Origin: a virus
Taxonomy: Duplodnaviria > Heunggongvirae > Uroviricota > Caudoviricetes
Direction: 5' to 3' (one strand)
Length of the DNA stretch: 22,934 nucleotides
Virus record (IMG/VR): IMGVR_UViG_2693429523_000013
Part shown: positions 2,153 to 19,972 of the stretch, one piece after another
Position numbering within the stretch: position 1 is the stretch's first letter
Layout: each line of letters begins with the position of its first letter
Program-made: the position numbers and the translations under genes
The notes under the pieces: model-generated
Databases searched by the model: none
What the model was told of the DNA's origin: nothing
What the model saw: only the letters and a program-made list of their open reading frames with translations

Positions 2153-2246
2153 TTTCTGACCGTTATCCGTTCACCCGCAGCAGACGTAATCCCCGGCCTG
2201 CCGGCGGCATTCTGCTGCCTGTTATATCCCCGTGAGGAATATGAAA

Positions 2247-4190: not shown

Positions 4191-4868
4191 ATGTCCATCA
4201 TTTTTAATGGACACTATCGTATGAAACACCGGACCTGGATCACTGAAGCTTTACGTCTTCACTTTGAAGAACATTTACCCCGGGTTGTGGCCGGGCGTCG
4301 CCTGAGTGTACCAAAATCAACAGTTTGTAGTATGTTCGTGCGCTTTCGGAGAGCTGGCCTTTCGTGGCCTTTGCCCGCAGGCATGTCGGAGCAGGAACTT
4401 GATGCCTGCCTTTACGGACAATTTTCCACGGTACCAGTCGTACGTCCTGAAAGCACCGTTATATCCGAAGCCCCCGTGGTAAAAAAACGTCCCCGGCGGC
4501 CCAACTTCCCTTATGAGTTTAAAATCGCCTTAGTGGAGCAGTCACTACAGCCCGGAGCCTGTGTGGCGCAGATCGCCCGGGAAAACGGAATCAACGATAA
4601 CCTGCTCTTCAACTGGCGCCATCAATACCGGAAAGGTGGCCTGCTGCCTTCCGGAAAAAATATGCCGGCACTGCTTCCCGTGACGTTAACGCCGGAGCCG
4701 GATAATAAAATCCCGGCCCCCGCACAGGAACCAGAGCAGATAAATACACCGTCCGACAGTCTGTGTTGTGAGCTGGTTCTGCCGGCCGGAACTCTCAGGC
4801 TTAAAGGTAAACTGACGCCGGCGTTATTACAGACACTTATCCGCGAAATAAAAGGGAGCAGCCACTGA
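4191..4868 (+). CDS. tnpA: IS66-family accessory protein TnpA (orfA) with atypical N-terminal extension; start uncertain
   Basis: C-terminal part PRRPNFPYEFKIALVEQSLQPGACVAQIARENGINDNLLFNWRHQYRKGGL matches the IS66 TnpA HTH pattern. The first ~95 residues (..RRAGLSWPLPAGMSEQELDACLYGQ..) look like a separate transposase-type HTH. Confidence 0.65.
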   Translation: MSIIFNGHYRMKHRTWITEALRLHFEEHLPRVVAGRRLSVPKSTVCSMFVRFRRAGLSWPLPAGMSEQELDACLYGQFSTVPVVRPESTVISEAPVVKKRPRRPNFPYEFKIALVEQSLQPGACVAQIARENGINDNLLFNWRHQYRKGGLLPSGKNMPALLPVTLTPEPDNKIPAPAQEPEQINTPSDSLCCELVLPAGTLRLKGKLTPALLQTLIREIKGSSH

Positions 4869-5215
4869 TGATATCTCTCCCTGCAGGTTCGCGTATCTGG
4901 CTGGTTGCAGGTATCACCGATATGCGAAATGGCTTTAACGGCCTGGCATCAAAAGTTCAGAACGTCCTGAAGGATGACCCGTTCTCCGGACACCTGTTCA
5001 TCTTCCGCGGACGCCGGGGTGACCAGATAAAAGTGTTGTGGGCTGACAGTGACGGACTGTGCCTCTTCACCAAACGCCTGGAGCGGGGCCGCTTCGTCTG
5101 GCCAGTCACCCGTGACGGCAAGGTGCACCTTACTCCGGCTCAGTTATCCATGCTTCTTGAAGGTATCAACTGGAAGCACCCGAAACGAACGGAACGCGCT
5201 GGAATCCGCATATAA
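4868..5215 (+). CDS. tnpB: IS66-family TnpB (orf2), 115 aa
   Basis: MISLPAGSRIWLVAGITDMRNGFNGLASKVQ...GDQIKVLWADSDGLCLFTKRLERGRFVWP is the characteristic IS66 Orf2 sequence; start overlaps the tnpA stop. Confidence 0.9.
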   Translation: MISLPAGSRIWLVAGITDMRNGFNGLASKVQNVLKDDPFSGHLFIFRGRRGDQIKVLWADSDGLCLFTKRLERGRFVWPVTRDGKVHLTPAQLSMLLEGINWKHPKRTERAGIRI

Positions 5216-5234
5216 CCCGTTGTAAAGTGAGGAT

Positions 5235-6806
5235 ATGGACACCTCACTTGCTCATGAGAACGCCCGCCTGCGGGCACTGTTGCAGACGCAACAGGACACC
5301 ATCCGCCAGATGGCTGAATACAACCGCCTGCTCTCACAGCGGGTGGCGGCTTATGCTTCCGAAATCAACCGGCTGAAGGCGCTGGTTGCGAAACTGCAAC
5401 GTATGCAGTTCGGTAAAAGCTCAGAAAAACTTCGTGCAAAAACCGAACGGCAGATACAGGAAGCACAGGAGCGAATCAGCGCACTTCAGGAAGAAATGGC
5501 GGAAACGCTGGGTGAGCAATATGACCCGGTACTGCCATCCGCCCTGCGCCAGTCTTCAGCCCGTAAACCGTTACCGGCCTCACTTCCCCGTGAAACCCGG
5601 GTTATCCGGCCGGAAGAGGAATGCTGTCCTGCCTGTGGTGGTGAACTCAGTTCTCTGGGATGTGATGTGTCAGAGCAACTGGAGCTTATCAGCAGCGCCT
5701 TTAAGGTTATCGAAACACAACGTCCGAAACAGGCCTGTTGCCGGTGCGACCATATCGTGCAGGCACCAGTACCTTCAAAACCCATTGCACGCAGTTATGC
5801 CGGAGCGGGGCTTCTGGCCCATGTTGTCACCGGGAAATATGCAGACCATCTGCCGTTATACCGCCAGTCAGAAATATACCGTCGTCAGGGAGTGGAGCTG
5901 AGCCGTGCCACACTGGGGCGCTGGACAGGTGCTGTTGCTGAACTGCTGGAGCCGCTGTATGACGTCCTGCGCCAGTATGTGCTGATGCCCGGTAAAGTCC
6001 ATGCTGATGATATCCCCGTCCCGGTCCAGGAGCCGGGCAGCGGTAAAACCCGGACAGCCCGGCTGTGGGTCTACGTCCGTGATGACCGTAACGCCGGTTC
6101 ACAGATGCCCCCGGCGGTCTGGTTCGCGTACAGTCCGGACCGGAAAGGTATCCATCCACAAAATCACCTGGCCGGTTACAGCGGTGTGCTTCAGGCCGAT
6201 GCTTACGGTGGTTACCGGGCGTTATACGAATCCGGCAGAATAACGGAAGCCGCGTGTATGGCTCATGCCCGGAGAAAAATCCACGATGTGCATGCAAGAG
6301 CGCCCACCTACATCACCACGGAAGCCCTGCAGCGTATCGGTGAACTGTATGCCATCGAGGCAGAGGTCCGGGGCTGTTCAGCAGAACAGCGTCTGGCGGC
6401 AAGAAAAGCCAGAGCCGCGCCACTGATGCAGTCACTGTATGACTGGATACAGCAACAGATGAAAACACTGTCGCGTCACTCAGATACGGCAAAAGCGTTC
6501 GCATACCTGCTGAAACAGTGGGATGCACTGAACGTGTACTGCAGTAATGGCTGGGTGGAAATCGACAACAACATCGCAGAGAACGCCTTACGGGGAGTGG
6601 CCGTAGGCCGGAAAAACTGGATGTTCGCGGGTTCCGACAGCGGTGGTGAACATGCGGCGGTGTTGTACTCGCTGATCGGCACATGCCGTCTGAACAATGT
6701 GGAGCCAGAAAAGTGGCTGCGTTACGTCATTGAACATATCCAGGACTGGCCGGCAAACCGGGTACGCGATCTGTTGCCCTGGAAAGTTGATCTGAGCTCT
6801 CAGTAA
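5235..6806 (+). CDS. tnpC: IS66-family transposase TnpC (523 aa)
   Basis: N-terminal coiled-coil/leucine-zipper region, CxxC...CxxC zinc-finger motifs (CPACGG...CCRCDH) and a C-terminal DDE region typical of IS66 transposases; GAGG lies just upstream of ATG 5235. Confidence 0.9.
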
Positions 6807-6855
6807 ATATCAATACGGTTCTGACGAGTCGCTTACAAACAAAAGGCTGGTTAAC

Positions 6856-7077
6856 ATGAAAAAAATGGCAATTGTCGATAAAAAGGGTCTGGAGTACATT
6901 CCTAATATCGATCGTATGATCCGTGAGAAAGAATGTCGGGAGCTAACCACTCTTGCGAACAGCACACGCTGGAAGCTGGAGAAGGAAGGAAAATTTCCTA
7001 AGCGGATCAAGATTGGTTCCACTGCTGTTGCATATCGTCTTTCAGAAGTGCAGGCATGGATTAGGGGAGAGTGGTAA
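6856..7077 (+). CDS. AlpA-family HTH regulator (73 aa)
   Basis: ...ELTTLANSTRWKLEKEGKFPKRIKIGSTAVAYRLSEVQAWIRGE fits the AlpA/excisionase-like HTH pattern; begins 20 bp after the IS66 right end. Confidence 0.7.
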   Translation: MKKMAIVDKKGLEYIPNIDRMIREKECRELTTLANSTRWKLEKEGKFPKRIKIGSTAVAYRLSEVQAWIRGEW

Positions 7078-7128
7078 GAATTTAGACAGTGGATGTAATC
7101 CTATGGGGTAAACCCATAGGATTTGAAA

Positions 7129-8478
7129 TCACTTAAATTCAAATACGTGCGTAGTTGATGAGATTATATAATTAGGTGGTAAGTATTGAACTATTTCTCC
7201 ATCTTCTTCAAAAATATGAATAACTCTTGGGAATAATTCAGGGTGTATAGGATTTAATGCCTTCGGATTATGAAACATGTATATTGCTGTACACCATGGT
7301 TCTTGATATGAAGGTGCATTGACAAGAGCAGTAAAAGGCATTGGGGTACAGCCTTCATCAGTTTTAATACCTCTAACGATGGATTTGACATTTTTTTGTT
7401 CAATCCCTGCCACTACTCCCATCCTATCAAATTTTGGGATGGTGGCATGTGTCGCAAGTAATATGGCTGAGACATTCTCATTTTTATTAGAGCCGAAAAA
7501 ATTAGATTGTATACTTCGATTTTCAAATAAATGTTGTTCAATTTTACTTCCAGAATCCATATCTACACCATACAGATAGCTTTGTAGTGCTGGCATTGAT
7601 ATACTCATCGAAAATCTGCGTGAGTAATCGTGTAAAGCAATAATGAAAGGCTTTCCTTTTGTATGATCTAGTTCCCAATAGCATAATTTTAAGGGTTCAG
7701 GTTTATGCCTAACTTTCTTTAATAGAGTGCGGGCAAATTTGAATGGCATTTGTTCTTTTACATATCTCTGAAGATCTTCTACTGCCTCATGATCAAGTAT
7801 CAATTTCTCGGTAGGTTCCTCTTGTTCTGCAACTGTGGCAGCTTCTACAGCAATATCAATGCCATTTTTTGAGATAATATAATCAGGTTGAGCATAATCT
7901 CTGCATATTACGAAATCCATTTCGTAGAAAACTGCGTTTAGATAAAGTTCGAATAAGCGAGAGTTAAATGAAGCACTCTGGAAATCTCTGATGAATATTC
8001 CATCAGGATCTTTACACCAATAAGCTAACTCTTGCATAACAATAAATGCAGGATAGTGTTTGGGTTCCTCAAGTAGCATTCTTAGATAAACGTTTTTTTT
8101 ATGTTCTGGAACTTTGGCTAGGAATATTGAAAATGCCGACTCTGATTCGTCACCCTGTATAAAACAACCGTTCTTGTGTAGTGATAATAGCTCTGGTATG
8201 GCTTTTTCCATATCAGTAATTAAATCATCTTTAGATTCACGGGATACAATTACTTTAATCGCTCTAAATTTTTTATCTAAATCCCTACCTAGAAATATAG
8301 CGTTGTAATCATTATCTATTTTACAAAAAACAATTGTTGCTAAGATCGTGACATCATCCTTTATAAATTTGAACCAACAGATTTCCTCCGAAAAGGTTTT
8401 TACGTATGGTGTACGACCATAGAAAAATACATCAAATTGTTCTTTACTGATTTCTAGCATTTTGTGACTTGTTGTCAT
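7129..8478 (-). CDS. hypothetical protein, 449 aa, AT-rich cargo gene of unknown function
   Basis: Uninterrupted 1350-nt minus-strand ORF; AAGGA is 7 nt upstream of the ATG (complement of 8476-8478). Visibly AT-rich compared with flanking DNA (by eye, not computed). No confident family assignment. Confidence 0.7.
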   Translation of the reverse strand: MTTSHKMLEISKEQFDVFFYGRTPYVKTFSEEICWFKFIKDDVTILATIVFCKIDNDYNAIFLGRDLDKKFRAIKVIVSRESKDDLITDMEKAIPELLSLHKNGCFIQGDESESAFSIFLAKVPEHKKNVYLRMLLEEPKHYPAFIVMQELAYWCKDPDGIFIRDFQSASFNSRLFELYLNAVFYEMDFVICRDYAQPDYIISKNGIDIAVEAATVAEQEEPTEKLILDHEAVEDLQRYVKEQMPFKFARTLLKKVRHKPEPLKLCYWELDHTKGKPFIIALHDYSRRFSMSISMPALQSYLYGVDMDSGSKIEQHLFENRSIQSNFFGSNKNENVSAILLATHATIPKFDRMGVVAGIEQKNVKSIVRGIKTDEGCTPMPFTALVNAPSYQEPWCTAIYMFHNPKALNPIHPELFPRVIHIFEEDGEIVQYLPPNYIISSTTHVFEFK

Positions 8479-8501
8479 AGAAGAATCCTTTATGCAAATT
8501 A

Positions 8502-8696
8502 TCAGCCTTTAGGTGTTATTCCTTGTTTTATTAGTTCGGCACGAGCCAGTTCTTTTAGCCAGTTACCTAAGCTCATCCCTTCTTTGGCAGCGACATTAAC
8601 CATTTGTTCTTTTAATTCTGGGTTAATACGGACTTGGAATGCTGGTGCTTTACCTGCACCTTTCGGTTGTTTATCACGTTGAATGATAGTTGACAT
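8502..8696 (-). CDS. ribbon-helix-helix (Arc/CopG-like) DNA-binding protein, 64 aa; likely regulator of the downstream 449-aa gene
   Basis: ..FQVRINPELKEQMVNVAAKEGMSLGNWLKELARAEL.. matches the beta-strand/helix/helix pattern of Arc-type repressors. Its stop is 23 nt upstream of the 449-aa gene start on the same strand. Confidence 0.6.
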   Translation of the reverse strand: MSTIIQRDKQPKGAGKAPAFQVRINPELKEQMVNVAAKEGMSLGNWLKELARAELIKQGITPKG

Positions 8697-8738
8697 GTGT
8701 GTACCTATTGCTTAGTATGATTCTTGATAGGTACACAC
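8697..8738. promoter_or_regulatory. 12-bp perfect inverted repeat (GTGTGTACCTAT-N18-ATAGGTACACAC) directly upstream of the RHH gene; candidate operator or translational hairpin
   Basis: Arms at 8697-8708 and 8727-8738 are exact reverse complements. On the minus strand, the arm adjacent to the start codon contains the only SD-like sequence (AGGT) for the RHH gene. Confidence 0.4.
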
Positions 8739-8835
8739 CTTATCATGTTTTATTGCTATATAACAACGCCCTGCAGTGCTCGCAACACATACAGGGCGTC
8801 TAACCACCAACGATAGCAACAGTATCGAGGTAGCT

Positions 8836-9039
8836 ATGAGAAATCATACCACACACCCGCAAGGGCGGGATTCGCACAACCTGAATAAATACATCTGGCG
8901 TTTTATCGCCCTGAGCACCGCACAACCACGCGTAATACACATCGAGGCCGCCAGCGAACAGGAAGCCCGCCAGCAATCCCCAACTGGCTACGTGATGATA
9001 TTCGCCGCCCGTATTCGTCAGGAGGTGTGCCGTGCTTAA
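8836..9039 (+). CDS. hypothetical small protein (67 aa), first gene of the divergent plus-strand operon
   Basis: GAGG at 8827-8830 precedes ATG 8836. The track ORF from 8776 is longer but lacks an RBS. No family recognised. Confidence 0.35.
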   Translation: MRNHTTHPQGRDSHNLNKYIWRFIALSTAQPRVIHIEAASEQEARQQSPTGYVMIFAARIRQEVCRA

Positions 9040-9217
9040 AACCTTCCGTGTATTTGCCCGAGCTGTTAACCCACTGGGCCACACAATTGGTATCACTCAG
9101 AACGTGAAGGCTGTTAATGTTCAGACGGCTATTGCTGCGGTGAGAAGCGAATCATCAGAATATGGCTTATCACAAGTCATTATTTCAGCAGTGTATGAAT
9201 TAAAAGAGGTGCATTAA
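9032..9217 (+). CDS. hypothetical small protein (61 aa)
   Basis: GTG start at 9032 with GGAGG at 9021-9025 (6-nt spacing); overlaps the previous stop, suggesting translational coupling. Confidence 0.4.
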   Translation: MLKTFRVFARAVNPLGHTIGITQNVKAVNVQTAIAAVRSESSEYGLSQVIISAVYELKEVH

Positions 9218-9408
9218 TGAAGGAAATTACATTACACGAAGCCGCTGAACGTGCGCACCAGACAGAAATTATTTGCCGCCTTCTTGAGGTATACCCGAAC
9301 AAAATTACAGATGCTGATATATCCGCGCTGGCGAGCCTACTGGCGCGCCTTTCGGGAAGTGTCGCTAGTTTCCTGATTGAGGAAGAAAGTAAGCTGGTGG
9401 GGGATTAA
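9217..9408 (+). CDS. hypothetical small protein (63 aa)
   Basis: ATG overlaps the upstream stop (TAATG); AGAGG lies upstream. Confidence 0.45.
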   Translation: MKEITLHEAAERAHQTEIICRLLEVYPNKITDADISALASLLARLSGSVASFLIEEESKLVGD

Positions 9409-9630
9409 ATGAATACAGAACGGGAAGTCTTTTTTAAATTGTTAGCATGTGCAGAAAGTTCATTAACTTTAAATAATTCAGCAAAAGCAATATTAAATAT
9501 GTGGCTTGATTGCATAAATGACAATGAAGATGCAAATATTGCTTATGGCCTGTTGTCACTTATTGATGAATCAGCAGAAAAACTCAATGACGCAATAAAT
9601 AGTGCCCTGCTATCAAATAAGTCGAGTTAA
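9409..9630 (+). CDS. hypothetical small protein (73 aa), AT-rich
   Basis: Start immediately follows the previous stop and is preceded by a G-rich SD-like stretch. Confidence 0.45.
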   Translation: MNTEREVFFKLLACAESSLTLNNSAKAILNMWLDCINDNEDANIAYGLLSLIDESAEKLNDAINSALLSNKSS

Positions 9631-9647
9631 GTCGAGGAATAAATAAT

Positions 9648-9947
9648 ATGGAAATGAAAAATTCTGGCTTTATTGCCAGCGGCCCCGCTCGGCCTGAATT
9701 TATGAACGGCGATATTTACCGCGATAAATACGGCGGCACGGTAACGATTAAAGGCGTGGCAGAACGGCGCATCACTTACCGCCGTGAGGGGTATAGCTAT
9801 GACTGCGTGATGCCTGTTTATCAGTTCCGGCGTGATTTTTCCCTGGTATATGCCGCACCCCGCAGTAAGCCCATCAGCAGGGAAAAAGCGCGGGGAAACA
9901 TCCAGAAAATGAAAAGCATGATTAACGCATTCAGGGGCAAAAAATGA
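9648..9947 (+). CDS. hypothetical protein (99 aa)
   Basis: GAGGAA precedes the ATG; the stop overlaps the primase start (ATGA). Confidence 0.5.
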   Translation: MEMKNSGFIASGPARPEFMNGDIYRDKYGGTVTIKGVAERRITYRREGYSYDCVMPVYQFRRDFSLVYAAPRSKPISREKARGNIQKMKSMINAFRGKK

Positions 9948-11695
9948 AACTGGCACCGAACTTAAAAAAACAGCCACGCGACAGACTGACAGAGGTAATC
10001 ATCTTTGCAGGTAGTGATGCGTGGAGCCATGCGAAAGAGTGGCGGGAATGGGCGGGTAAACATATTGCCGCCGACGATGTGCCGCCTGTCGTGCTGGCTG
10101 ATGAGCAACTGAAAAATATCACCGATTACCGGATCATTGATGAAGATCGTCAGTGTGTGCGTGTTTACCGCGCAGGACATATCACAGAGCACAGCATGAC
10201 GCAGATTGTTACGTTACTGGCTGTGGCTGGAGTGAAGACCGTACACGAATACGCGGGGATTACTGACACCAGCCCAGTGGATTTATCCGAGCAGTTGCCG
10301 CGACTCAAAGAGGAATGCGAGCGTGGGGAAAGTCTGGTGCTTAATCTTCCGACGAAGCAAAAGGCGCAACTTTCACAGATGGCAGACAGTGAACGTGCAC
10401 AACTACTTGCCGATCGCTTTGATGGTGTGTGTGTTCATGCAGAAAGTGAAATCGTCCACGTATGGCGCGGCGGGGTATGGTGTCCGGTCAGCACAATGGA
10501 GCTGAGCCGCGAAATGGTGGCGATCTATTCAGAGCACAGGGCCACGTTCAGCAAACGTGTAATCAATAACGCCGTGGAAGCGTTAAAAGTTATTGCCGAC
10601 CCCATGGGGGAGCCGTCCGGTGATTTGCTACCGTTCACTAATGGTGTGCTTAACCTGAAAACGGGGGAATTTTCTCCGCACTCGCCGGAGCACTGGAGCA
10701 CCACGCACAATGGCATTGAGTACACGCCACCAGTAGCAGGGGAAAACATCCGCGATAATGCGCCAAATTTCCATAAATGGCTTGAACATGCTGCAAGAAA
10801 AGACCCGCGTAAGATGATGCGTATATGTGCCGCGTTATACATGATTATGGCGAACCGCTACGACTGGCAGATGTTCATTGAGGCCACCGGAGACGGGGGA
10901 AGCGGTAAGAGTACATTTACCCATATTGCCACCCTGCTTGCTGGCAAACAGAACACCGTAAGCGCGGAGATGACATCACTCGATGATGCAGGAGGGCGCG
11001 CGCAGGTTGTCGGGAGTCGTCTTATCGTCCTTGCCGATCAGCCGAAATATACGGGGGAAGGCACGGGCATCAAGAAAATCACGGGAGGCGATCCCGTTGA
11101 AATTAACCCGAAATATGAGAAGCGATTCACGACGATAATAAGGGCGGTGGTACTGGCAACCAATAACGACCCGATGATCTTTACCGAACGGGCCGGAGGT
11201 GTGTCACGCCGTCGGGTGATTTTCCGGTTCGACAACATTGTAAGGGAGGACGAAAAAGACAAGGAATTACCGGAAAAGATAGCGGCAGAAATCCCCGTAA
11301 TTATCCGCCGCTTGCTGGCTAATTTTGCTGCCCCTGAAAAGGCACGGGCTTTATTACTGGAACAGCGTGACGGTGATGAAGCTCTGGCAATAAAGCAGCA
11401 AACGGATCCGGTTGTTGAGCTTTGCGCGGCGCTGGAGTTTCTGGAGGAAGCTCGTGGGCTAATGATGGGCGGTGGTGGTGACACCGTGAAGTACACGACC
11501 AGAAACAGCCTTTACCGTGTCTATATGGCCTTCATGGCATACACAGGAAAGGGGAAATGTTTGAGCGTGAATGAGTTCGGAAAGGCTATGAGGTCAGCGG
11601 CGAAAGTTTACGGATATGAATATATTACGCGAAAAGTTAAGGGAGTCACGCAGACCAACGCAACGACTACTGATGATTGCGATGCGTTTTTATAA
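9944..11695 (+). CDS. phage/plasmid primase-helicase, P4-alpha C-terminal type (D5_N-like plus SF3 NTPase), 583 aa
   Basis: Walker A GDGGSGKST and Walker B-like RLIVLADQP; overall architecture is that of P4-family / PICI replication proteins as recalled. An iteron array lies directly downstream. Confidence 0.85.
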   Translation: MKLAPNLKKQPRDRLTEVIIFAGSDAWSHAKEWREWAGKHIAADDVPPVVLADEQLKNITDYRIIDEDRQCVRVYRAGHITEHSMTQIVTLLAVAGVKTVHEYAGITDTSPVDLSEQLPRLKEECERGESLVLNLPTKQKAQLSQMADSERAQLLADRFDGVCVHAESEIVHVWRGGVWCPVSTMELSREMVAIYSEHRATFSKRVINNAVEALKVIADPMGEPSGDLLPFTNGVLNLKTGEFSPHSPEHWSTTHNGIEYTPPVAGENIRDNAPNFHKWLEHAARKDPRKMMRICAALYMIMANRYDWQMFIEATGDGGSGKSTFTHIATLLAGKQNTVSAEMTSLDDAGGRAQVVGSRLIVLADQPKYTGEGTGIKKITGGDPVEINPKYEKRFTTIIRAVVLATNNDPMIFTERAGGVSRRRVIFRFDNIVREDEKDKELPEKIAAEIPVIIRRLLANFAAPEKARALLLEQRDGDEALAIKQQTDPVVELCAALEFLEEARGLMMGGGGDTVKYTTRNSLYRVYMAFMAYTGKGKCLSVNEFGKAMRSAAKVYGYEYITRKVKGVTQTNATTTDDCDAFL

Positions 11696-11711
11696 AAAAT
11701 GGCAATGGTTA

Positions 11712-11934
11712 TCTACCTTGTCTACCTGACTGAAAGAAAATACTTTTATTTCAATGTATTAATGCAGGTAGATAACTATTTTTCACTGTCTACCTGTTAT
11801 CTACCTTATCTACCCATTTTTGTAGACAGGTAAGGAGACGGGTAGAGATGAGGTAGACAGCTATTTGGGGCTGTCTACCTCCCTGAAACCCGCGCCATTA
11901 CTGGCCTGATAACTAATCAGGTAGACAAGGTAGA
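11712..11934. repeat. iteron array; candidate replication origin of the satellite-like module
   Basis: About 12 copies of the hexamer TCTACC / GGTAGA in both orientations (TCTACC at 11712, 11721, 11789, 11800, 11809, 11874; GGTAGA at 11767, 11841, 11852, 11920, 11929, plus a partial copy at 11822). An AT-rich spacer sits at 11731-11766, immediately 3' of the primase gene. Confidence 0.6.
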
Positions 11935-11984
11935 CAAGGTGGTGGTGCACAAAAAACTTTTTAAACGAGGGGGTAAAAATAAAA

Positions 11985-12242
11985 ATGCACACATCAGGAA
12001 AACTGAACAAACATATAAAGCCACATTACCGCGCCCTTGATATGGCTGAACACTGGCTAAGGGTGGCGATTAAGGCAATAGACCGCAACGCCGGGGAAGG
12101 ATACGCGAAAGCACATCCCGAACTGATAAGCGCATTCATGACAACGGCGGCTGCAAACTTTGCCACGCTGACCGAACGGGAGATTGCTGAAGCGGAGGAA
12201 GTGACAACAATCAATATTAAGTCCGGAGAGCAGGCAGCATGA
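11985..12242 (+). CDS. hypothetical protein (85 aa)
   Basis: GAGGGGG lies upstream of the ATG; the stop overlaps the ssb start (ATGA). Confidence 0.5.
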   Translation: MHTSGKLNKHIKPHYRALDMAEHWLRVAIKAIDRNAGEGYAKAHPELISAFMTTAAANFATLTEREIAEAEEVTTINIKSGEQAA

Positions 12243-12688
12243 CGGCGCAAATATCAGTTTACGGGCGGTTGGTGGACGACCCGCAGACAAAACAGACCAG
12301 CAAGGGCACCCCCATGACGCTGGCGCGTATGGCGGTATCACTGCCCTGCAGTCAGTCGGATGACGGTCTGGCGACGTTGTGGTTATCTGTCCTGGCGTTT
12401 GGCAGACAAGCCGACGCGCTGGCAAAGCATCACAAAGGCGAACTCCTGAGCGTGGCGGGTAACATGCAGATGAGCCAGTGGACTGGACAGAACGGCGAAA
12501 CGCGGCAGGGCTGGCAGGTTATCGCAGACAGCGTAATCAGTGCGCGATCGGTGCGACCGGGCGGCAAAAAAGGCCAACAGGGGCAGGCTACTGACGCACT
12601 GAACAGAGCAAAACAACAGGCAGATCAGCAAGGAAGCCAGCCACCAGAGGGAGATAATGAGCAATGGGGAGATGATATCCCGTTTTAA
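12239..12688 (+). CDS. ssb: single-stranded DNA-binding protein (149 aa)
   Basis: OB-fold region aligns by eye with E. coli SSB (ISVYGRLVDDPQ.., WLSVLAFGRQAD, GELLSVAGNMQMSQWTGQNGE..); Gly/Gln-rich linker; acidic C-terminal tip ...WGDDIPF matches the SSB DDDIPF tail. Confidence 0.85.
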   Translation: MTAQISVYGRLVDDPQTKQTSKGTPMTLARMAVSLPCSQSDDGLATLWLSVLAFGRQADALAKHHKGELLSVAGNMQMSQWTGQNGETRQGWQVIADSVISARSVRPGGKKGQQGQATDALNRAKQQADQQGSQPPEGDNEQWGDDIPF

Positions 12689-12904
12689 ATATTGCCAATA
12701 AAAAAAGCCGGAAAAAATAAATTTTCCGGCATGCTACATAAATCCCGACCAAAGGGAGTGAAGATATTAACACTAATTGTCCGCACTGAAGTTGTCACCC
12801 CAAAACTTTATACAACATTGCACTCGGTTGCATGTGTTCGCATGACAAATATCGGTGATAGCATATATCCACAATTATTTTTAATGAATGCAAAGAGGAT
12901 GCGT

Positions 12905-13945
12905 ATGGTTGATTTATATTCGCCTACCCAGCTTGTACAGGTGGTTAATGCTGTAGATGTACAAAAACAACTAAATGCGTTGTTTACCAGTTTGTTTTTT
13001 ACTCGCTCGGTAATGTTTGGATCGCGCGATATTATTCTTGATACAATCGACGATCCAAATATCCCAATTGCAGCGTTTTGTTCTCCTATGGTGGGTAGTA
13101 AAGTTTCACGTGACGAAGGGTACGAATCAAAAACAATTCGTCCAGGCTATATGAAGCCGAAAAGCAGCATTGATCCAAATAAGTTAGCTGTGCGCCCTGC
13201 TGGTGTATCACCTGAGCAATACAATGCTTTTGGGGCGCGTAATATTAAAGTTAAACAGGCGATTGTAAATCAAGCTAAAGCTATTCGTGCACGTATTGAA
13301 TGGCTTGCCGTTCAGGCAATCACAACGGGGAAAAATATCATTGAGGGCGATGGTATTGAACGTTATGAGCTGGACTGGAATATTAAACCACAAAATATCA
13401 TCACTCAGTCTGGCGGTACTGAGTGGTCAGGTAAGGATAAAGAAACTTTTGATCCAAATGATGATATTGAGAGCTACGCAGAATTTAGTGAGGGCGTCAC
13501 TAATATCATCATTATGGGCGGTAATGTATGGAAGAAATACCGTTCATTCAGAGCGATAAAAGAGGCTCTGGATACCCGTCGTGGTTCTAATTCCGAACTG
13601 GAAACGGCCCTTAAAGACCTTGGTGATTCGGTGAGTTTTAAAGGATATATGGGCGATGTTGCGATTGTTGTTTACAGCGGGCGTTATACCGACGAGGACG
13701 GAACTGAAAAACATTTCCTTGATCCTGATTTGATGGTGCTTGGCAATACGGCTCTTCAGGGGATTGTCGCCTATGGCGGTATTCAGGATCCGGAGCTAAT
13801 CCGAATGGGGCTGACTAAAGCCGAACTTGCACCGAAAAACTATATTGTGCCTGGTGATCCGGCTATTGAATATGTGCAGACACATTCAGCACCACAGCCA
13901 ATACCGGCCCGCATCAATCGTTTTGTTACCGTTCGCATTGGCTAA
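12905..13945 (+). CDS. major capsid protein, lambda gpE family (346 aa), divergent from lambda
   Basis: Aligns by eye along its length with lambda gpE (PGYMKPK.., NIITQSGGTEWSGKDK.., DTRRGSNSELETA identical, C-terminal ..GDPA.E...QSAP..). AGAGGA is 5 nt before ATG 12905; the track ORF start at 12692 adds 71 residues with no homology. Confidence 0.8.
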   Translation: MVDLYSPTQLVQVVNAVDVQKQLNALFTSLFFTRSVMFGSRDIILDTIDDPNIPIAAFCSPMVGSKVSRDEGYESKTIRPGYMKPKSSIDPNKLAVRPAGVSPEQYNAFGARNIKVKQAIVNQAKAIRARIEWLAVQAITTGKNIIEGDGIERYELDWNIKPQNIITQSGGTEWSGKDKETFDPNDDIESYAEFSEGVTNIIIMGGNVWKKYRSFRAIKEALDTRRGSNSELETALKDLGDSVSFKGYMGDVAIVVYSGRYTDEDGTEKHFLDPDLMVLGNTALQGIVAYGGIQDPELIRMGLTKAELAPKNYIVPGDPAIEYVQTHSAPQPIPARINRFVTVRIG

Positions 13946-13954
13946 GGGGGAGCA

Positions 13955-14296
13955 ATGGCTACTCATTACACTGAACTCATGGCTGGCACTGAAGCACTGG
14001 TGACTACGCTGGGGATATTTTCAGCTAATAAAGGGGTAATTCCTGCATTTACGCCACTGATGCAGGAAGATGCAACAGGTGCACTGGTGGTATGGGATGG
14101 TTCGAGCGTAGGTAAAGCGGTTTATGTTTCCGCTGTACAAATCGACACCGCGAAAAAAACACAGGCTCAGGTCTATAAGACAGGTGTCTTAAATGTTGAT
14201 GCTCTGAACTGGCCTGAGTCTGTAAAAGAACTGTCAGTAAAGATTGCAGCGTTTGTTGGCTCAGGTATTTCTGTTCAGCCGCTGGCTCGTGTGTAA
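13955..14296 (+). CDS. head decoration protein, lambda gpD-like (113 aa)
   Basis: ..TPLMQEDATGALVVWDGSSVGKAVYVSAVQ...YKTGVLNVDALNWPE...AAFVGSGISVQPL parallels lambda gpD (..TPLM...KLVAWDG...YKSGTF..VLWPE..AFAGTAISIV) as recalled. AAGGGGGA RBS present. Confidence 0.7.
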   Translation: MATHYTELMAGTEALVTTLGIFSANKGVIPAFTPLMQEDATGALVVWDGSSVGKAVYVSAVQIDTAKKTQAQVYKTGVLNVDALNWPESVKELSVKIAAFVGSGISVQPLARV

Positions 14297-14307
14297 AGGG
14301 GGATACA

Positions 14308-14691
14308 ATGCAAAATGATTACAATGACCTTAAGCCAATTGCCGAAATGATGTACCCGAATCCAGCTGTAGAGGAATTAAAAGCTATCGCTGACAAAATG
14401 TGTTTAAGCGAGCGCCTTGTTGATATGAATCAGGTGATGGAAATTACAACCCTGAGTCGGCGTACACTGCTAAACCTTGAGGCTAGTGGAGAGTTCCCGG
14501 AGCGTGTGCAGGTTACGGAAGGGCGTAAGGCCTGGTATTTAAGTGAAGTGATCGACTGGATAAATAATATTCCTCGCGCTTCTGAATATTGCCGCGTACC
14601 TGTCCCAAAAAAGCCAGATGCGGCGCTATGCCTCAAGATTGAGCGTGTACGCCGCAATGCACGGGATGGTCGCTATAAGCTGATTGGTTGA
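14308..14691 (+). CDS. AlpA-type HTH domain protein with ~40-aa N-terminal extension (127 aa)
   Basis: Residues ~40-90 (MNQVMEITTLSRRTLLNLEASGEFPERVQVTEGRKAWYLSEVIDWI) fit the AlpA HTH pattern; AAGGGGGA RBS before ATG 14308. Confidence 0.6.
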   Translation: MQNDYNDLKPIAEMMYPNPAVEELKAIADKMCLSERLVDMNQVMEITTLSRRTLLNLEASGEFPERVQVTEGRKAWYLSEVIDWINNIPRASEYCRVPVPKKPDAALCLKIERVRRNARDGRYKLIG

Positions 14692-14744
14692 TGAAATTAG
14701 GGCCCGCTCTGGCTGGCGGGTCCTTTCCGGCGATCTGACAGGCT

Positions 14745-14912
14745 ACGGGGCGTCAGGCGCGCGGATTTTCGCTATTTATGAAAATTTTCCGGTTTAAGGC
14801 GTTTCCGTTCTTCTTCGTCGTAACTTAATGTTTTTATTTAAAATACCCCCTGAAAAGAAAGGAAACGACAGGTGCTGAAAGCGAGCTTTTTGGCCTCTGT
14901 CGTTTCCTTTCT
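14745..14912 (+). promoter_or_regulatory. lambda-type cos region: cosN-like site (~14745-14762) and cosB with three CGTTTCC-core R elements
   Basis: 14760-14936 reads almost exactly as the recalled lambda left-end/cosB sequence upstream of Nu1. R3 is at 14791-14797, inverted R2 at 14861-14867 and R1 at 14901-14907; R2/R1 lie in a 16-bp perfect inverted repeat (14856-14871 / 14897-14912). The 12-mer at 14748-14759 is GGGCGTCAGGCG rather than the recalled lambda GGGCGGCGACCT. Confidence 0.7.
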
Positions 14913-14936
14913 CTGTTTTTGTCCGTGGAATGAACA

Positions 14937-15488
14937 ATGGAAGTCAACAAAAAGCAGCTGGCTGACATTTTCGGTGCGAGTATCCGTACCATTCAGAACT
15001 GGCAGGAACAGGGAATGCCCGTTCTGCGAGGCGGTGGCAAGGGTAATGAGGTGCTTTATGACTCTGCCGCCGTTATAAGATGGTATGCCGAAAGGGATGC
15101 TGAAATTGAGAACGAAAAGCTGCGCCGGGAAGTTGAAGAACTGCGGCAGGCCAGCGAGACAGATCTCCAGCCAGGGACTATTGAGTACGAACGCCATCGA
15201 CTTACGCGTGCGCAGGCCGACGCACAGGAACTGAAGAATGCCAGCGAAACAGGTGAGGTAATTGACACTGCATTTGCGACTTATGCCTTGTCGAAATTAA
15301 CTGGGGAAGTTGGAGCAATCATTGATAGTCTTCCACTTGCGATCTGTCGACAGTTTCCTGGCATGGAAAAACGGTATCAGGACTTCATTAAGATGGAGGT
15401 CAGTAAAGCATTTATTCGAGCTTACCAGATCTCAGATAACATTCCAGATATGGCTGAAAGGTATATCAAGGATAATCAGCGAAGTTAA
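14937..15488 (+). CDS. Nu1: terminase small subunit Nu1, chimeric: lambda-type N-terminal DNA-binding domain with a divergent C-terminal domain
   Basis: First ~100 residues (MEVNKKQLADIFGASIRTIQNWQEQGMPVLRGGGKGNEVLYDSAAVI.WYAERDAEIENEKLRREVEELRQASE.DLQPGTIEYERHRLTRAQADAQELKNA) match lambda gpNu1 as recalled; the C-terminal ~80 residues are similar in length but clearly different. Confidence 0.9.
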   Translation: MEVNKKQLADIFGASIRTIQNWQEQGMPVLRGGGKGNEVLYDSAAVIRWYAERDAEIENEKLRREVEELRQASETDLQPGTIEYERHRLTRAQADAQELKNASETGEVIDTAFATYALSKLTGEVGAIIDSLPLAICRQFPGMEKRYQDFIKMEVSKAFIRAYQISDNIPDMAERYIKDNQRS

Positions 15489-15544
15489 AACAAATGAAAC
15501 CATAGGTAGGAAGAGTGCTTAGGTGGTTCTTTGTTGCTTAAAAG

Positions 15545-15577
15545 TCGCCAGTAAAACTGGCGATAGATTTTATTTGT
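15545..15577 (+). terminator. rho-independent terminator-like hairpin after Nu1
   Basis: 8-bp stem TCGCCAGT/ACTGGCGA (15545-15552 / 15557-15564) with a 4-nt loop, followed by the T-rich run tagattttatttg. Lies between convergent Nu1 and the DUF2971-like gene. Confidence 0.45.
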
Positions 15578-15594
15578 CAAAAGCATTTGACCTT

Positions 15595-16500
15595 TTAAGG
15601 TAGTGGTACTATGGATATTTTTCTGTCGTTCCCAAATGAACTTTTAAATAATTTCGCTCTTGGATACATTTTAACTAGTGATGCGACTTCATCGAACTCG
15701 CTGGCATCAAAAAGAGGACCAAGTATTACAGATTTTAACTCAAAAGGGTGAAATTTTAAGTCGCTATATTGACCAGTGCTATTTGGCCTAGCGTAGGTTG
15801 AAATTCTCCACTCTCTTTCATATGCCCATTCTTCTGTTTTTATGAATATTATCTCATTATTGATATATTCAATTGACTTATTGTCTGGCATGAAAAGCAA
15901 CTCGGCCATCCCTTCAGCAGTGTGAGTTAGAGGCATTTCATCTGTGTATTTCATAGGTTTGGCTATTAACCAAGCGCTATCCAGAAAGTCTACACAATCA
16001 AATTCGATAACTATACCTTTATATTTATCGGCATAGTGATTCCACATAGGAGTGATTATAGGGCTCTCAGATAAACACAAAATCCTTCTGTTATTAAGCA
16101 TTCCTCGCCAGACATCTTTCATTTCTTGTATTGCCGCAGGAGCGCCAATCCCAACTGGTGGAATGTTTACCATTTCTTGAAATCTTTCAATTAATCCTGC
16201 GGGTATGCCTAAAGGAAATGACTTTTGGAAATCACTTAGCATTGTTCTAATTCTAGGGTTTAAATTTTGTATGTCTTCTCTGGGGGTAATCAACTCCGCT
16301 ATTAACTTGCGGGCTAAAGCTTTGCCAATATTAATTTCGTTAATACCAGGCATAACTTCTCTTGGAACATCAAAAGGGTCATTAAATAGGACCGGAGAAC
16401 TCCATCTAAGGCTGCATGAATCAAGAACAATCTTCGCGGTATTCAACGACATATACTTATAAAATGTTGAGCGTTCATGCATTCTGTTGGGTGAGCGCAT
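15595..16500 (-). CDS. DUF2971-like protein (301 aa), AT-rich moron
   Basis: N-terminal ..STFYKYMSLNTAKIVLDSCSLRWSSPVLFNDPFDV.. matches the recalled DUF2971 signature (YKY.S...L...lw.S.p..FNDPFD). AGAGGA is 4 nt upstream of the ATG (complement of 16498-16500). AT-rich by eye. Confidence 0.7.
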   Translation of the reverse strand: MRSPNRMHERSTFYKYMSLNTAKIVLDSCSLRWSSPVLFNDPFDVPREVMPGINEINIGKALARKLIAELITPREDIQNLNPRIRTMLSDFQKSFPLGIPAGLIERFQEMVNIPPVGIGAPAAIQEMKDVWRGMLNNRRILCLSESPIITPMWNHYADKYKGIVIEFDCVDFLDSAWLIAKPMKYTDEMPLTHTAEGMAELLFMPDNKSIEYINNEIIFIKTEEWAYEREWRISTYARPNSTGQYSDLKFHPFELKSVILGPLFDASEFDEVASLVKMYPRAKLFKSSFGNDRKISIVPLP

Positions 16501-16648
16501 AGATTCCTCTTGTTAAATGAGTGATGGTTTTCATCCATGTATTGCACGTTGTATTGCATTCAAGGATTTTCCATTTCAATTCTATAGCTAAAACGTAATC
16601 AAATCATTCACATCCTTTCATATTTGACTCATGTAGCCGAAGCATGAG

Positions 16649-17425
16649 GTGAATCCGCAGATGACCCTGCGTCGCCTGCCGGATGAAGATCCGCAGAATC
16701 TGGCGGACCCGGCTTACCGCCGCCGTCGCATCATCATGCAGAACATGCGAGACGAAGAGCTGGCCATTGCTCAGGTCGAAGAGATGCAGGCAGTTTCTGC
16801 TGTGCTTAAGGGCAAATACACCATGACCGGTGAAGCCTTCGATCCGGTTGAGGTGGATATGGGCCGCAGTGCGGCGAACAACATCACACAGTCCGGTGGT
16901 ACGGAGTGGAGCAAGCGTGACAAGTCCACGTATGACCCGACCGACGATATCGAAGCCTATGCGCTGAACGCCAGCGGAGTGGTGAATATCATCGTGTTTG
17001 ATCCGAAAGGCTGGGCGCTGTTCCGTTCCTTCAAAGCCGTCAAGGAGAAGCTGGATACCCGTCGCGGCTCTAATTCCGAGCTGGAGACAGCGGTAAAAGA
17101 CCTGGGCGAAGCGGTGTCCTATAAGGGGATGTATGGCGATACGGCGATCGTCGTGTATTCCGGACAGTACGTGGAAAACGACGTCAAAAAGAACTTCCTT
17201 CCGGACAACACGATGGTGCTGGGGAACTCTCAGGCACGCGGTCTGCGCACCTATGGCTGCATTCAGGATGCGGACGCACAGCGCGAAGGTATTAACGCCT
17301 CTGCCCGCTACCCGAAAAACTGGGTGACCACCGGCGATCCGGCGCGTGAGTTCACCATGATTCAGTCAGCACCGCTGATGCTGCTGGCTGACCCTGATGC
17401 GTTCGTGTCCGTACAACTGGCGTAA
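16649..17425 (+). pseudogene. E: major capsid protein E, lambda-type, 5'-truncated (lacks ~80 N-terminal codons)
   Basis: Translation MNPQMTLRRLPDEDPQNLADPAYRRRRIIMQNMRDEE... to ..FVSVQLA is near-identical to lambda gpE residues ~84-341 as recalled. Lambda similarity begins near 16637; an in-frame TAG sits at 16634-16636 and upstream DNA is unrelated. Confidence 0.8.
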
Positions 17426-17466
17426 TCATGGCCCTTCGGGGCCATTTTCTCTCTGTGGAGGAGTCT

Positions 17467-17862
17467 ATGACGAAAGATGAACTGATTGCCCGTCTTCAGG
17501 TGCTGGGTGAGCAACTGAACCGTGATGTCAGCCTGACGGGGACGAAAGAAGAACTGGTGCTCCGTGTGGCAGAGCTGGAAGAGGAGCTTGATGACACGGA
17601 TGACGCTGCCGGTCAGGACACATCTGTCAGCCCGGAAAATGCGCTGACCGGACATGAAAATGAGGTTGTATCAGCGCAGCCGGATACCGTGACTGATACG
17701 GCTGATCTGGTCACGGTTGTGGCACTGGTGACGCTGCATACTGATGCACTTCACGCCACGCGGGATGAGGCTGTGGCATTTGTGCTGCCGGGAACGGCGT
17801 TCCGTGTCTCTGCCGGTGTGTCAGCTGAAATGACAGAGCGCGGCCTGGCCAGAATGCAATAA
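17467..17862 (+). CDS. FI: lambda-type FI protein (DNA packaging / head assembly)
   Basis: MTKDELIARLQVLGEQLNRDVSLTGTKEEL...TERGLARMQ is near-identical to lambda gpFI; GGAGGAG RBS before ATG 17467. The track ORF from 17428 is an upstream extension. Confidence 0.9.
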   Translation: MTKDELIARLQVLGEQLNRDVSLTGTKEELVLRVAELEEELDDTDDAAGQDTSVSPENALTGHENEVVSAQPDTVTDTADLVTVVALVTLHTDALHATRDEAVAFVLPGTAFRVSAGVSAEMTERGLARMQ

Positions 17863-17873
17863 CGGGAGGCGCT

Positions 17874-18227
17874 GTGGCTGATTTCGATAACCTGTTCGAT
17901 GCTGCCATTGCCCGCGCCGATGAAACGATACGCGGGTACATGGGAACGTCAGCCACCATGACATCCGGTGAGCAGTCCGGCGCAGTAATACGTGGTGTTT
18001 TTGATGACCCTGAAAATATCAGCTATGCCGGACAGGGCGTGCGCGTTGAAGGCTCCAGCCCGTCCCTGTTTGTCCGGACTGATGATGTGCGGCAGCTGCG
18101 GCGCGGCGACACGCTGACCATCGGTGAGGAAAACTTCTGGATAGACCGGATTTCGCCGGATGATGGCGGAAGCTGTCATCTCTGGCTTGGGCGGGGCGTA
18201 CCGCCTGCCGTTAACCGTCGCCGCTGA
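17874..18227 (+). CDS. FII: lambda-type FII head-tail joining protein
   Basis: MADFDNLFDAAIARADETIRGYMGTSA...HLWLGRGVPPAVNRRR is near-identical to lambda gpFII. Confidence 0.92.
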   Translation: MADFDNLFDAAIARADETIRGYMGTSATMTSGEQSGAVIRGVFDDPENISYAGQGVRVEGSSPSLFVRTDDVRQLRRGDTLTIGEENFWIDRISPDDGGSCHLWLGRGVPPAVNRRR

Positions 18228-18238
18228 AAGGGGGATGT

Positions 18239-18817
18239 ATGGCCATAAAAGGTCTTGAGCAGGCCGTTGAAAACCTCAGTCGTATCAGCAGAGCGGCGGT
18301 GCCCGGTGCCGCCGCAATGGCCATTAACCGCGTTGCTTCATCCGCGATATCGCAGTCGGCGTCACAGGTTGCCCGTGAGACAAAGGTACGCCGGAAACTG
18401 GTAAAGGAAAGGGCCAGGCTGAAAAGGGCCACGGTCAAAAATCCGCAGGCCAGAATCAAGGTTAACCGGGGGGATTTGCCCGTAATAAAGCTGGGTAACG
18501 CGCGGATTGTCCTGTCCCGACGCAGGCGTCGTAAAAAGGGGCAGCGTTCAGCCCTGAAAGGTGGCGGCAGCGTGCTTGTGGTGGGAAACCGTCGTATTCC
18601 CGGCGCGTTTATTCAGCAACTGAAACATGGCCGCTGGCATGTCATGCAGCGTGTGGCCGGGAAAAACCGTTACCCCATTGATGTGGTGAAAATCCCGATG
18701 GCGGTGCCGCTGACCACGGCGTTTAAACAGAATATTGAGCGGATACGGCGTGAGCGTCTTCCGAAAGAGCTGGGCTATGCGCTGCAGCATCAACTGAGGA
18801 TGGTAATAAAGCGATGA
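18239..18817 (+). CDS. Z: lambda-type minor tail protein Z
   Basis: MAIKGLEQAVENLSRISRAAVPGAAAMAINRVASS... 192 aa, matches lambda gpZ. Confidence 0.92.
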   Translation: MAIKGLEQAVENLSRISRAAVPGAAAMAINRVASSAISQSASQVARETKVRRKLVKERARLKRATVKNPQARIKVNRGDLPVIKLGNARIVLSRRRRRKKGQRSALKGGGSVLVVGNRRIPGAFIQQLKHGRWHVMQRVAGKNRYPIDVVKIPMAVPLTTAFKQNIERIRRERLPKELGYALQHQLRMVIKR

Positions 18818-19209
18818 AACATACTGAACTCCGTGCAGCCGTACTGGATGCACTGGAGAAGCATGACACCGGGGCGACGCTTTTTGATGGTCGCCCCGCT
18901 GTTTTTGATGAGGAAGATTTTCCGGCAATTGCCGTTTATCTCACCGGCGCTGAATACACGGGCGAAGAGCTGGACAGCGATACCTGGCAGGCGGAGCTGC
19001 ATATTGAAGTTTTCCTGCCTGCTCAGGTGCCGGATTCAGAGCTGGATGCGTGGATGGAGTCCCGGATTTATCCGGTGATGAGCGATATCCCGGCACTGTC
19101 AGATTTGATCACCAGTATGGTGGCCAGTGGCTATGACTACCGGCGCGACGATGATGCGGGCCTGTGGAGTTCAGCCGATCTGACTTATGTCATTACCTAT
19201 GAAATGTGA
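18814..19209 (+). CDS. U: lambda-type tail terminator protein U
   Basis: [52 protein letters not shown]... 131 aa, matches lambda gpU; start overlaps the Z stop. Confidence 0.92.
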
Positions 19210-19216
19210 GGACGCT

Positions 19217-19957
19217 ATGCCTGTACCAAATCCTACAATGCCGGTGAAAGGTGCCGGGACCACCCTGTGGGTTTATAAGGGGAGCGGTGACCCTTATGCG
19301 AACCCGCTTTCAGACGTTGACTGGTCGCGTCTGGCAAAAGTTAAAGACCTGACGCCCGGCGAACTGACCGCTGAGTCCTATGACGACAGCTATCTCGATG
19401 ATAAAGATGCAGACTGGACTGCGACCGGGCAGGGGCAGAAATCTGCCGGAGATACCAGCTTCACGCTGGCGTGGATGCCCGGAGAGCAGGGGCAGCAGGC
19501 GCTGCTGGCGTGGTTTAATGAAGGTGATACCCGTGCCTATAAAATCCGCTTCCCGAACGGCACGGTCGATGTGTTCCGTGGCTGGGTCAGCAGTATCGGT
19601 AAGGCGGTGACGGCGAAGGAAGTGATTACCCGCACGGTGAAGGTCACCAATGTGGGACGTCCGTCGATGGCAGAAGATCGCAGCACGGTAACAGCGGCAA
19701 CCGGCATGACCGTGACGCCTGCCAGCACTTCGGTGGTGAAAGGGCAGAGCACCACGCTGACCGTGGCATTCCAGCCGGAAGGCGCAACCGACAAGAGCTT
19801 CCGTGCGGTGTCAGCGGATAAAACAAAAGCCACCGTGTCGGTCAGTGGTATGACCATCACCGTGAATGGCGTTGCTGCAGGCAAGGTCAACATTCCGATT
19901 GTATCCGGTAATGGTGAGTTTGCTGCGGTTGCAGAAATCACCGTCACCGCCAGTTAA
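19217..19957 (+). CDS. V: lambda-type major tail protein V
   Basis: [49 protein letters not shown]... 246 aa, matches lambda gpV including the C-terminal Ig-like domain; GAGGA is 4 nt before ATG 19217. Confidence 0.92.
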
Positions 19958-19972
19958 TCCGGAGAGTCAGAG

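Follow-up and report, generated by a model that had tools for sequence, protein, structure and literature searches.

The window analysed here is a 22,934-nt stretch of DNA recorded as a tailed-phage sequence (IMG/VR record IMGVR_UViG_2693429523_000013; Caudoviricetes). In this window, a gene of the DUF2971 family lies in reverse orientation between a Nu1-like small terminase gene and an incomplete major capsid gene E. How did this gene come to lie there, and what does its protein do? The first-pass annotation of the window proposed that the gene had replaced the lambda head genes A-W-B-C-Nu3-D and that it was a candidate single-gene accessory or defence function. Comparison with sibling genomes gives a different answer to the first question: the gene is cargo of a satellite, a helper-embedded phage-inducible chromosomal island (HE-PICI), which is inserted in E. 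For the second question the defence function is the best reading, and the protein is probably a stand-alone anti-phage protein with an ADP-ribosyltransferase (ART)-like core.

A helper-embedded satellite in the capsid gene E

DNA comparison showed that the lambda-type similarity ends at window position 15244 and picks up again at 16635–16640 inside E, at a point that corresponds to lambda E nt ~235. The first-pass annotation had placed these two breaks almost exactly (~15242 and ~16637). Between 15244 and 16635 there is only one long open reading frame (ORF), that of the DUF2971 gene (301 aa), and its reverse orientation and AT-richness had also been read correctly. Its GC content is 37.7%, compared with 45.4% for the satellite backbone to the left and 57.3% for the phage genes to the right. 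None of the genes A, W, B, C and Nu3 is found anywhere in the window. Upstream, at 12905–14296, Pfam does identify a capsid gene of the E-like type and a decoration gene of the D-like type.

The window from 12032 to 22934 is 99.1% identical to Escherichia coli strain ECA64, and the window is E. coli chromosomal DNA; the DUF2971 segment is carried by no deposited phage genome. The lambdoid prophage of ECA64 reads nohD(Nu1)-A-W-B-C-D, the first 246 nt of E, a block of ~10.5 kb, the last 789 nt of E, and then FI, FII, Z, U, V, G, T, H and on. The block holds the genes for an integrase, a helix-turn-helix (HTH) protein, variable proteins, an icd-like protein, DUF4222, a primase, a single-stranded DNA-binding protein (SSB), an E-like capsid protein, a D-like decoration protein, AlpA, a small terminase and the DUF2971 protein. 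The two pieces of E sum to one complete E, with a 10-bp direct duplication at the junctions. The gene described earlier as a truncated E is indeed interrupted, but it is split at one point by an insertion. Its 3' part is 98–99% identical to lambda-like phages, and RefSeq labels it as a partial capsid gene in siblings. Five complete genomes (ECA64, UID2309220033, ET490, TUM13867 and MLI104K2) keep Nu1-A-W-B-C-D-E' upstream of the inserted block, which runs from int to the small terminase (TerS) gene and the cargo, and all have the same junction of TerS, cargo, right attachment site (attR) and 'E. For AH50 the comparison covered the TerS side, where cargo, attR and 'E are joined in the same way, and the same arrangement also occurs in Klebsiella aerogenes.

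A lambda-like prophage in which a 1.4-kb DUF2971 moron took the place of A-W-B-C-Nu3-D, flanked by a chimeric Nu1 and a truncated E, would fit the window by itself, where lambda-level similarity is gone from 15244 to 16635 and A, W, B and C are missing. This explanation is extremely improbable, since the head genes lie intact upstream of the satellite int in the sibling genomes and E' and 'E make up one complete gene. Moreover, what comes before the Nu1-like gene is a set of satellite genes (for primase, SSB, E-like capsid, D-like decoration and AlpA) and not prophage lysis genes, and the layout has been published as that of an HE-PICI.

The prototype of the HE-PICIs, 11capE, lies in E at the site E:Phage_cap_E:80 with a 10-bp identity block, and 201 instances were reported (Tommasini, Mageeney & Williams 2023; PMC10111431). 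A doubled motif, tgTGTATTGCantgTGTATTGCa, lies 81 ± 2 bp upstream and 132 ± 2 bp downstream of the attP centre (PMC10111431). In the present locus, the 10-bp core is AGCCGAAGCA in both ECA64 and the window, and AACCCAAGCA in UID2309220033, matching the allele of that prophage. The doubled TGTATTGC motif, expected to flank the attP centre of E:Phage_cap_E:80 HE-PICIs at about −81 and +132 bp, is present in the window and ends 81 bp before the core centre; the second copy in ECA64 (locus L001, 12203–12222) starts 133 bp after the core of the left attachment site (attL) and adjoins int. The segment from 6836 to 16644, roughly 10 kb long, belongs to the E:Phage_cap_E:80 group of HE-PICIs and interrupts the prophage gene E at codon ~80.

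The tandem GTATTGCA repeat, which had been taken as part of the upstream region of the DUF2971 gene, does exist, but it is shifted by one base to the left (Table 1) relative to the reported 16540–16547 and 16552–16559. It is a satellite recombination-arm motif, because the published HE-PICI motif and spacing match, and it is not a promoter element of the gene. It is not specific to DUF2971 either, as the doubled motif occurs at the same position in sibling satellites with quite different cargo. It is probably bound by the arm domain of the integrase or by AlpA.

The genes of the window satellite are, in order, HTH/AlpA-like, PD-T7-1, HicB-like, icd-like, DUF4222, primase, SSB, E-like capsid, D-like decoration and AlpA, followed by cos, TerS and DUF2971. 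The element shares with 11capE the insertion at codon ~80, the 10-bp identity block, the same direction as the late genes, the doubled attP motif tgTGTATTGCa with its published spacing, the order of alpA, variable zone, primase-SSB and late zone, and the E-like capsid gene. It differs in that int is reduced to its last 19 nt and attL is lacking, with an IS66 junction at 6836, whereas siblings at 99% identity carry a full int. Its late zone also differs, ending in a helper-type cos, a chimeric Nu1 and the DUF2971 gene. DUF2971 is absent from the main text of PMC10111431, in which the word "defense" occurs in the reference list only.

The satellite core (capsid, decoration and AlpA genes) was found at a coverage of at least 80% in 365 of 5,426 complete E. 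coli genomes. Other satellites of the same family occupy tRNA genes, the abgR/smrA locus or the portal gene. Two satellites with the same backbone (L022 and L023, 8337–9119) are inside the portal gene B of lambdoid prophages and not in E, in line with published work in which HE-PICIs use several late-gene sites. The window satellite brings along an E-like gene for a major capsid protein (346 aa) and a D-like one for a decoration protein, although its host site is the E gene of the helper, which is split until excision. Deletion of the equivalent capsid gene of EcCICFT073 caused no phenotype (PMC6092414). A split of E by homologous recombination with the E-like gene of the satellite was ruled out by the precise 10-bp duplication, the flanking integrase gene and the published attP motifs.

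The DUF2971 gene and its product

The first-pass annotation had given the gene its own Shine-Dalgarno sequence, and this sequence was confirmed before the ATG at 16500, in the context AAGAGGAATCT. The RefSeq model of the same gene in ECA64 has only 252 aa (L001 21596–22354, corresponding to window 15595–16353), and the start of the 301-aa model lies 147 nt further upstream. The longer model is right and the ECA64 model probably N-terminally truncated, because the homologues have 299–301 aa and align over ~99% of the ORF, the PADLOC profile covers the additional residues, and the Shine-Dalgarno sequence fits the upstream start. The ORF is intact, full length and at least 99.7% identical in 33 genomes. 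The ratio of nonsynonymous to synonymous substitution rates (dN/dS) was 0.08–0.19 against the K. aerogenes orthologue and one other, with dS near saturation. The gene is under purifying selection. Rfam at gathering thresholds gave no match in the whole window; a known antitoxin or immunity RNA is thus absent from the vicinity of the gene. NCBIfam gave no family for the DUF2971, PD-T7-1, TerS or AlpA proteins.

The protein matches Pfam DUF2971 (PF11185) with an E value of 1e-9 (40 bits versus the gathering cut-off of 22), and residues 152–233 align to the full profile (positions 1–89). PF11185 was also found in 119 of the 120 homologues listed, the exception being a 183-aa fragment. The family had been named correctly by the first-pass annotation, but its signature had been placed at the N-terminus, which is outside the Pfam domain. 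An N-terminal block, FYKYMS...LRWSSPxLFNDPFD, is nevertheless invariant among the homologues and lies within the region covered by PDC-S31. The latter is a single-gene candidate defence system in PADLOC, whose profile PDLC04990 matches at E 2.5e-32, with residues 9–289 on profile positions 5–246 of 259; four more PDC-S31 profiles also match.

Sequence searches of the PDB with the protein found nothing. An AlphaFold2 model computed with 44 homologues reached a pLDDT of 94.1 and a pTM of 0.85, and it contains an ART-like core fold. The nearest solved structures are Tpt1, DarT and scabin; DarT ranked first in Foldseek, but the match was non-significant. The core strands are broken by two helical insertions, at residues ~55–137 and ~176–228 of the model. 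E228 and E230 (the ExE motif) as well as Y156 and Y160 are invariant in the 44 sequences, and ExE is located at the start of the strand 230–236. Following the description in PMC12522546, ExE was tentatively assigned to motif III (the catalytic glutamate) and the tyrosines to the aromatic motif II. At the motif-I site, this subfamily has F-Y-K-Y-M-S where a distant paralogue has F-H-Y-T-D; K15 is near-invariant, and so is R32. The published analysis placed DUF2971 in the ART superfamily, described helical insertions in the core and a poorly conserved motif histidine, and found the family in about 6,000 species (PMC12522546).

The passenger explanation, in which the gene is functionless or a decaying remnant in a defective element, can point to the loss of the satellite integrase at the IS66 insertion in the window and to the deleted copy of the gene in MLI104K2. 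We give it very little weight, because of the intact and nearly identical ORF in 33 genomes, the low dN/dS, the invariant catalytic-type residues and the very confident structure model.

Cargo slots and proposed function

The DUF2971 gene is the last gene of the satellite. It lies between the cos/TerS module and attR, faces inward, and has a terminator toward TerS. This TerS-attR slot is variable among siblings. It holds DUF2971 in the window, in ECA64 and in further strains (33 genomes among the ~365 of E. coli with the satellite backbone), an AbiJ-like gene in TUM13867 (E 2e-21), an NsnA/PD-T4-2-like pair of DUF262 and HEPN genes in ET490, and genes for proteins without known function in UID2309220033 and AH50. 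A 71%-identical DUF2971 orthologue occupies the same attR-proximal slot in a K. aerogenes HE-PICI in E. The second variable slot, between the alpA-like gene and the HicB-like/icd-like genes, holds a full-length PD-T7-1 defence gene in the window (GC 34.4%), so two defence-type cargo genes are present in one satellite. In TUM13867 this slot, after the alpA-like gene, holds a PDC-S35 TIR protein gene, and in ET490 and many other strains it holds a distant DUF2971 paralogue and a SWIM protein gene. The paralogue (L003 3778–5120) has 284 aa, 22% identity and the classical HYTD and ENEFR motifs, and it is followed by the convergent SWIM zinc-finger gene. Iso00270, 184/2aE and ES10 apparently carry both DUF2971 types in one element.

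Homologues were also found outside satellites. The Enterobacter copy adjoins HEPN_AbiV and YjhX, the Pantoea copy lies beside SIR2 and HD proteins within a lambdoid prophage, and further copies adjoin toxin-antitoxin genes and integrase remnants. No conserved partner gene was seen across 7 different contexts. Orthologues also occur in environmental Thiobacillus, Opitutaceae and Pantoea.

The first-pass annotation regarded the function of DUF2971 as unestablished, which is outdated. Aristaios, a 316-aa DUF2971 protein of Lactococcus plasmids, has been shown experimentally to be a single-gene antiphage system acting by abortive infection (PMC11381338), and the ART assignment of the family has been published (PMC12522546). 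Taken together, the PDC-S31 match, the defence genes in sibling slots, the defence neighbours of homologues and the Aristaios precedent favour a single-gene defence role. Thus, the product of the satellite cargo gene is probably a cytoplasmic protein of the PDC-S31/Aristaios type with an ART-like core, which acts against phages on its own. The match to PDC-S31 is near full length, and the single-gene architecture without an obligatory partner is the same.

The mechanism that we infer is as follows. The enzyme would be kept inactive until a competing phage infects the cell. On infection, it would modify a target with the help of NAD+. This target is most probably nucleic acid, because Tpt1, DarT and scabin are the structures closest to the protein. 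The infection would then be abortive, and the clone would be protected together with the satellite and its helper. A more specific version of this mechanism is possible but doubtful: the protein may be an antitoxin-less, self-regulated nucleic-acid ART of the DarT/Tpt1 type, whose helical insertions sense the competing phage and with which satellites guard their own prophage. DarT and Tpt1/KptA differ from the protein in that it has two large helical insertions, just 8–13% identity to them, and a lysine instead of the motif-I histidine. Membership in DarTG was ruled out, as no DarG-like macrodomain antitoxin is adjacent; the neighbours are the convergent TerS gene, the att arm and 'E.

Several points weigh against the defence reading or its proposed chemistry. 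Some sibling slots hold genes without known defence link, and a hotspot location is circumstantial evidence. A scan of 16500–16634 found no consensus sigma-70 promoter, and a literature search for "PDC-S31" found no paper, PDC-S31 being a computational candidate. The protein shares with Aristaios the single gene of ~300 aa, Pfam DUF2971, an ART-like predicted fold and a mobile-element location, a likeness in domain, size and fold class. Aristaios also comes from another host phylum and from plasmids instead of a satellite, and a plasmid tblastn search gave no Lactococcus among the matches listed or the ten named genera. The near-invariant K15 stands where H-Y-E ARTs have the motif-I histidine, so NAD+ chemistry is not assured.

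The gene might instead serve the satellite itself, either through helper interference, for example by modifying helper DNA or packaging proteins so that the satellite is packaged preferentially, or as an addiction toxin that stabilises the composite element. PICIs do encode helper interference beside the packaging module, such as the Rpp of EcCICFT073 (PMC6739421), the DUF2971 gene is directly beside cos/TerS, and ART-fold toxins such as DarT target DNA. Such a role is unlikely, however. The gene is non-core and is substituted by AbiJ or PD-T4-2-like genes in siblings; it runs opposite to the late operon and lies behind a terminator; its close homologues outside satellites are found in defence islets as well as in a nin-like region of a prophage; and no antitoxin-sized gene is adjacent.

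The ART-like fold also raises the explanation that the cargo is a secreted or host-directed virulence effector, an ADP-ribosylating toxin. The protein sequence has no N-terminal hydrophobic signal, and no secretion, B-subunit or chaperone gene is adjacent. In addition, the orthologues extend to environmental bacteria, the best structural neighbours are nucleic-acid-modifying ARTs, and the PADLOC family PDC-S31 was derived from defence-island association. We therefore consider a virulence effector very improbable, and return to the anti-phage protein as the preferred reading.

Packaging module, left junction and implications

Table 1. Positions of the features in the window
Feature	Position	Strand	Basis
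IS66-family element (tnpA, tnpB, tnpC; ISCro1-like)	4191..6806	+	Pfam and RefSeq names of matching DNA
HE-PICI, left-truncated	6836..16644	+	Profile matches, sibling comparison and published organisation (PMC10111431; EcCICFT073, PMC6092414)
PD-T7-1 defence gene in second variable slot	7129..8478	-	PADLOC E 1e-153, full length
Helper-type cos region (cosN variant and lambda-like cosB) borne by satellite	14717..14936	+	96.6% identity to resident prophage cos of ECA64
TerS of satellite, Nu1 family, 183 aa, chimeric	14937..15488	+	Pfam Phage_Nu1 E 3.6e-84
Terminator-like hairpin and T-run between convergent TerS and DUF2971 genes	15544..15574	+	
DUF2971/PDC-S31 gene, 301 aa, single-gene cargo; predicted ART-like defence protein	15595..16500	-	
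Shine-Dalgarno AAGAGGA, separated by 4 nt from the ATG at 16500	16505..16511	-	Read from sequence
Doubled TGTATTGCA motif, HE-PICI attP arm	16538..16558	+	Copies at 16538–16546 and 16550–16558
attR core AGCCGAAGCA, 10-bp identity block, codons K-P-K-H (~79–81) of E; right end of satellite	16635..16644	+	attL/attR comparison in ECA64 and UID2309220033
3' part of prophage major capsid gene E, codon ~81 to stop	16645..17425	+	Phage_cap_E profile positions 94–328

The Nu1 gene beside the DUF2971 gene had been called chimeric, and the chimerism is real, but the gene belongs to the satellite and not to the prophage. TerS matches positions 1–162 of the 164 in the Phage_Nu1 profile. Its residues 1–102 are of the helper/lambda type (96 of the first 98 residues are identical to lambda Nu1), whereas the C-terminal part is a distinct variant, of which the last 80 residues are close in alignment neither to phage nor to the 180-aa TerS of sibling PICIs. 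The 528 bp from 14717 to 15244, containing cos and the 5' part of the TerS gene, are 96.6% identical to the resident cos-nohD of ECA64 (L001 5666–6193). The chimerism most likely arose by recombination between the packaging modules of satellite and helper. The lambda cosN GGGCGGCGACCT was searched for with up to two mismatches and not found; cosN here is the variant of the resident prophage. The cosB of the satellite was called lambda-like by comparison with the lambda cosB sequence.

Sibling PICIs have a divergent TerS DNA-binding domain instead of the helper-type one. In the composite prophage, the 528-bp segment forms a direct repeat with copies ~15 kb apart, which could mediate deletions or change the packaging specificity. 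In the K. aerogenes HE-PICI (L011 10028–10974), two other genes stand in the position of TerS; one product has 199 aa and a lambda tail-assembly-I domain, and the other has 116 aa and no known function. TerS was also considered as an Rpp. RppA and RppC are PICI proteins of 144–153 aa that redirect packaging (PMC6739421). This assignment was ruled out, as RppC (6hlk) matched at E 0.038 over the winged HTH only and TerS has 183 aa and belongs to the Nu1 family. EcCICFT073 is likewise an int-alpA-primase satellite of lambda/phi80-type helpers with cos and with homologues of the capsid (c1499) and decoration (c1500) genes, but it has a 144-aa Rpp and another cosB and no TerS, in contrast to the Nu1-family TerS and lambda-like cosB found here (PMC6092414).

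At the left side, the satellite match begins at 6836 with the remnant of int, and the IS66 element lies directly before it. The DNA to the left of IS66 (1–4100, including an AlpA-like gene at 1751–2152) is an unrelated island. The same satellite variant, including its PD-T7-1 side, is present in MLI104K2, where int, attL and the head genes of the prophage are still in place. Because IS66 abuts the int remnant and MLI104K2 keeps int, attL and head genes, the loss of the head genes is a secondary event. The head genes are therefore missing from the window through a rearrangement associated with an insertion sequence (IS), unrelated to the DUF2971 gene. Without int and attL, the satellite of the window should be incapable of excision. 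MLI104K2 has in turn an internal deletion (L007 14108–14549), which fuses the beginning of the primase gene to the central part of the DUF2971 gene; adjoining it are an IS5 element and a prophage in heavy decay, and the locus is an example of the erosion of such composites.

What appeared to be a gross deletion of head genes is an architecture already described, a satellite within its helper's capsid gene. Like the satellite defence hotspots of P4 (PMC9122126) and of PICIs with defence systems, it has fixed variable slots with strain-specific defence genes; the backbone differs, being a helper-embedded PICI with slots at alpA/icd and TerS/attR. HE-PICIs and satellite-borne defence genes have been published before, as have a DUF2971 antiphage gene and the placement of DUF2971 among the ARTs, and the advance is incremental. 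It assigns a DUF2971 subfamily to a cargo slot of satellites in which recognised defence genes are otherwise found, and it provides an easily clonable E. coli candidate, of about 1.1 kb with its native flanks, for the large DUF2971/PDC-S31/Aristaios family. If the protein is a self-regulated nucleic-acid ART, no member of this very large family would have had its mechanism defined earlier, and the case would exemplify how a satellite defends its helper.

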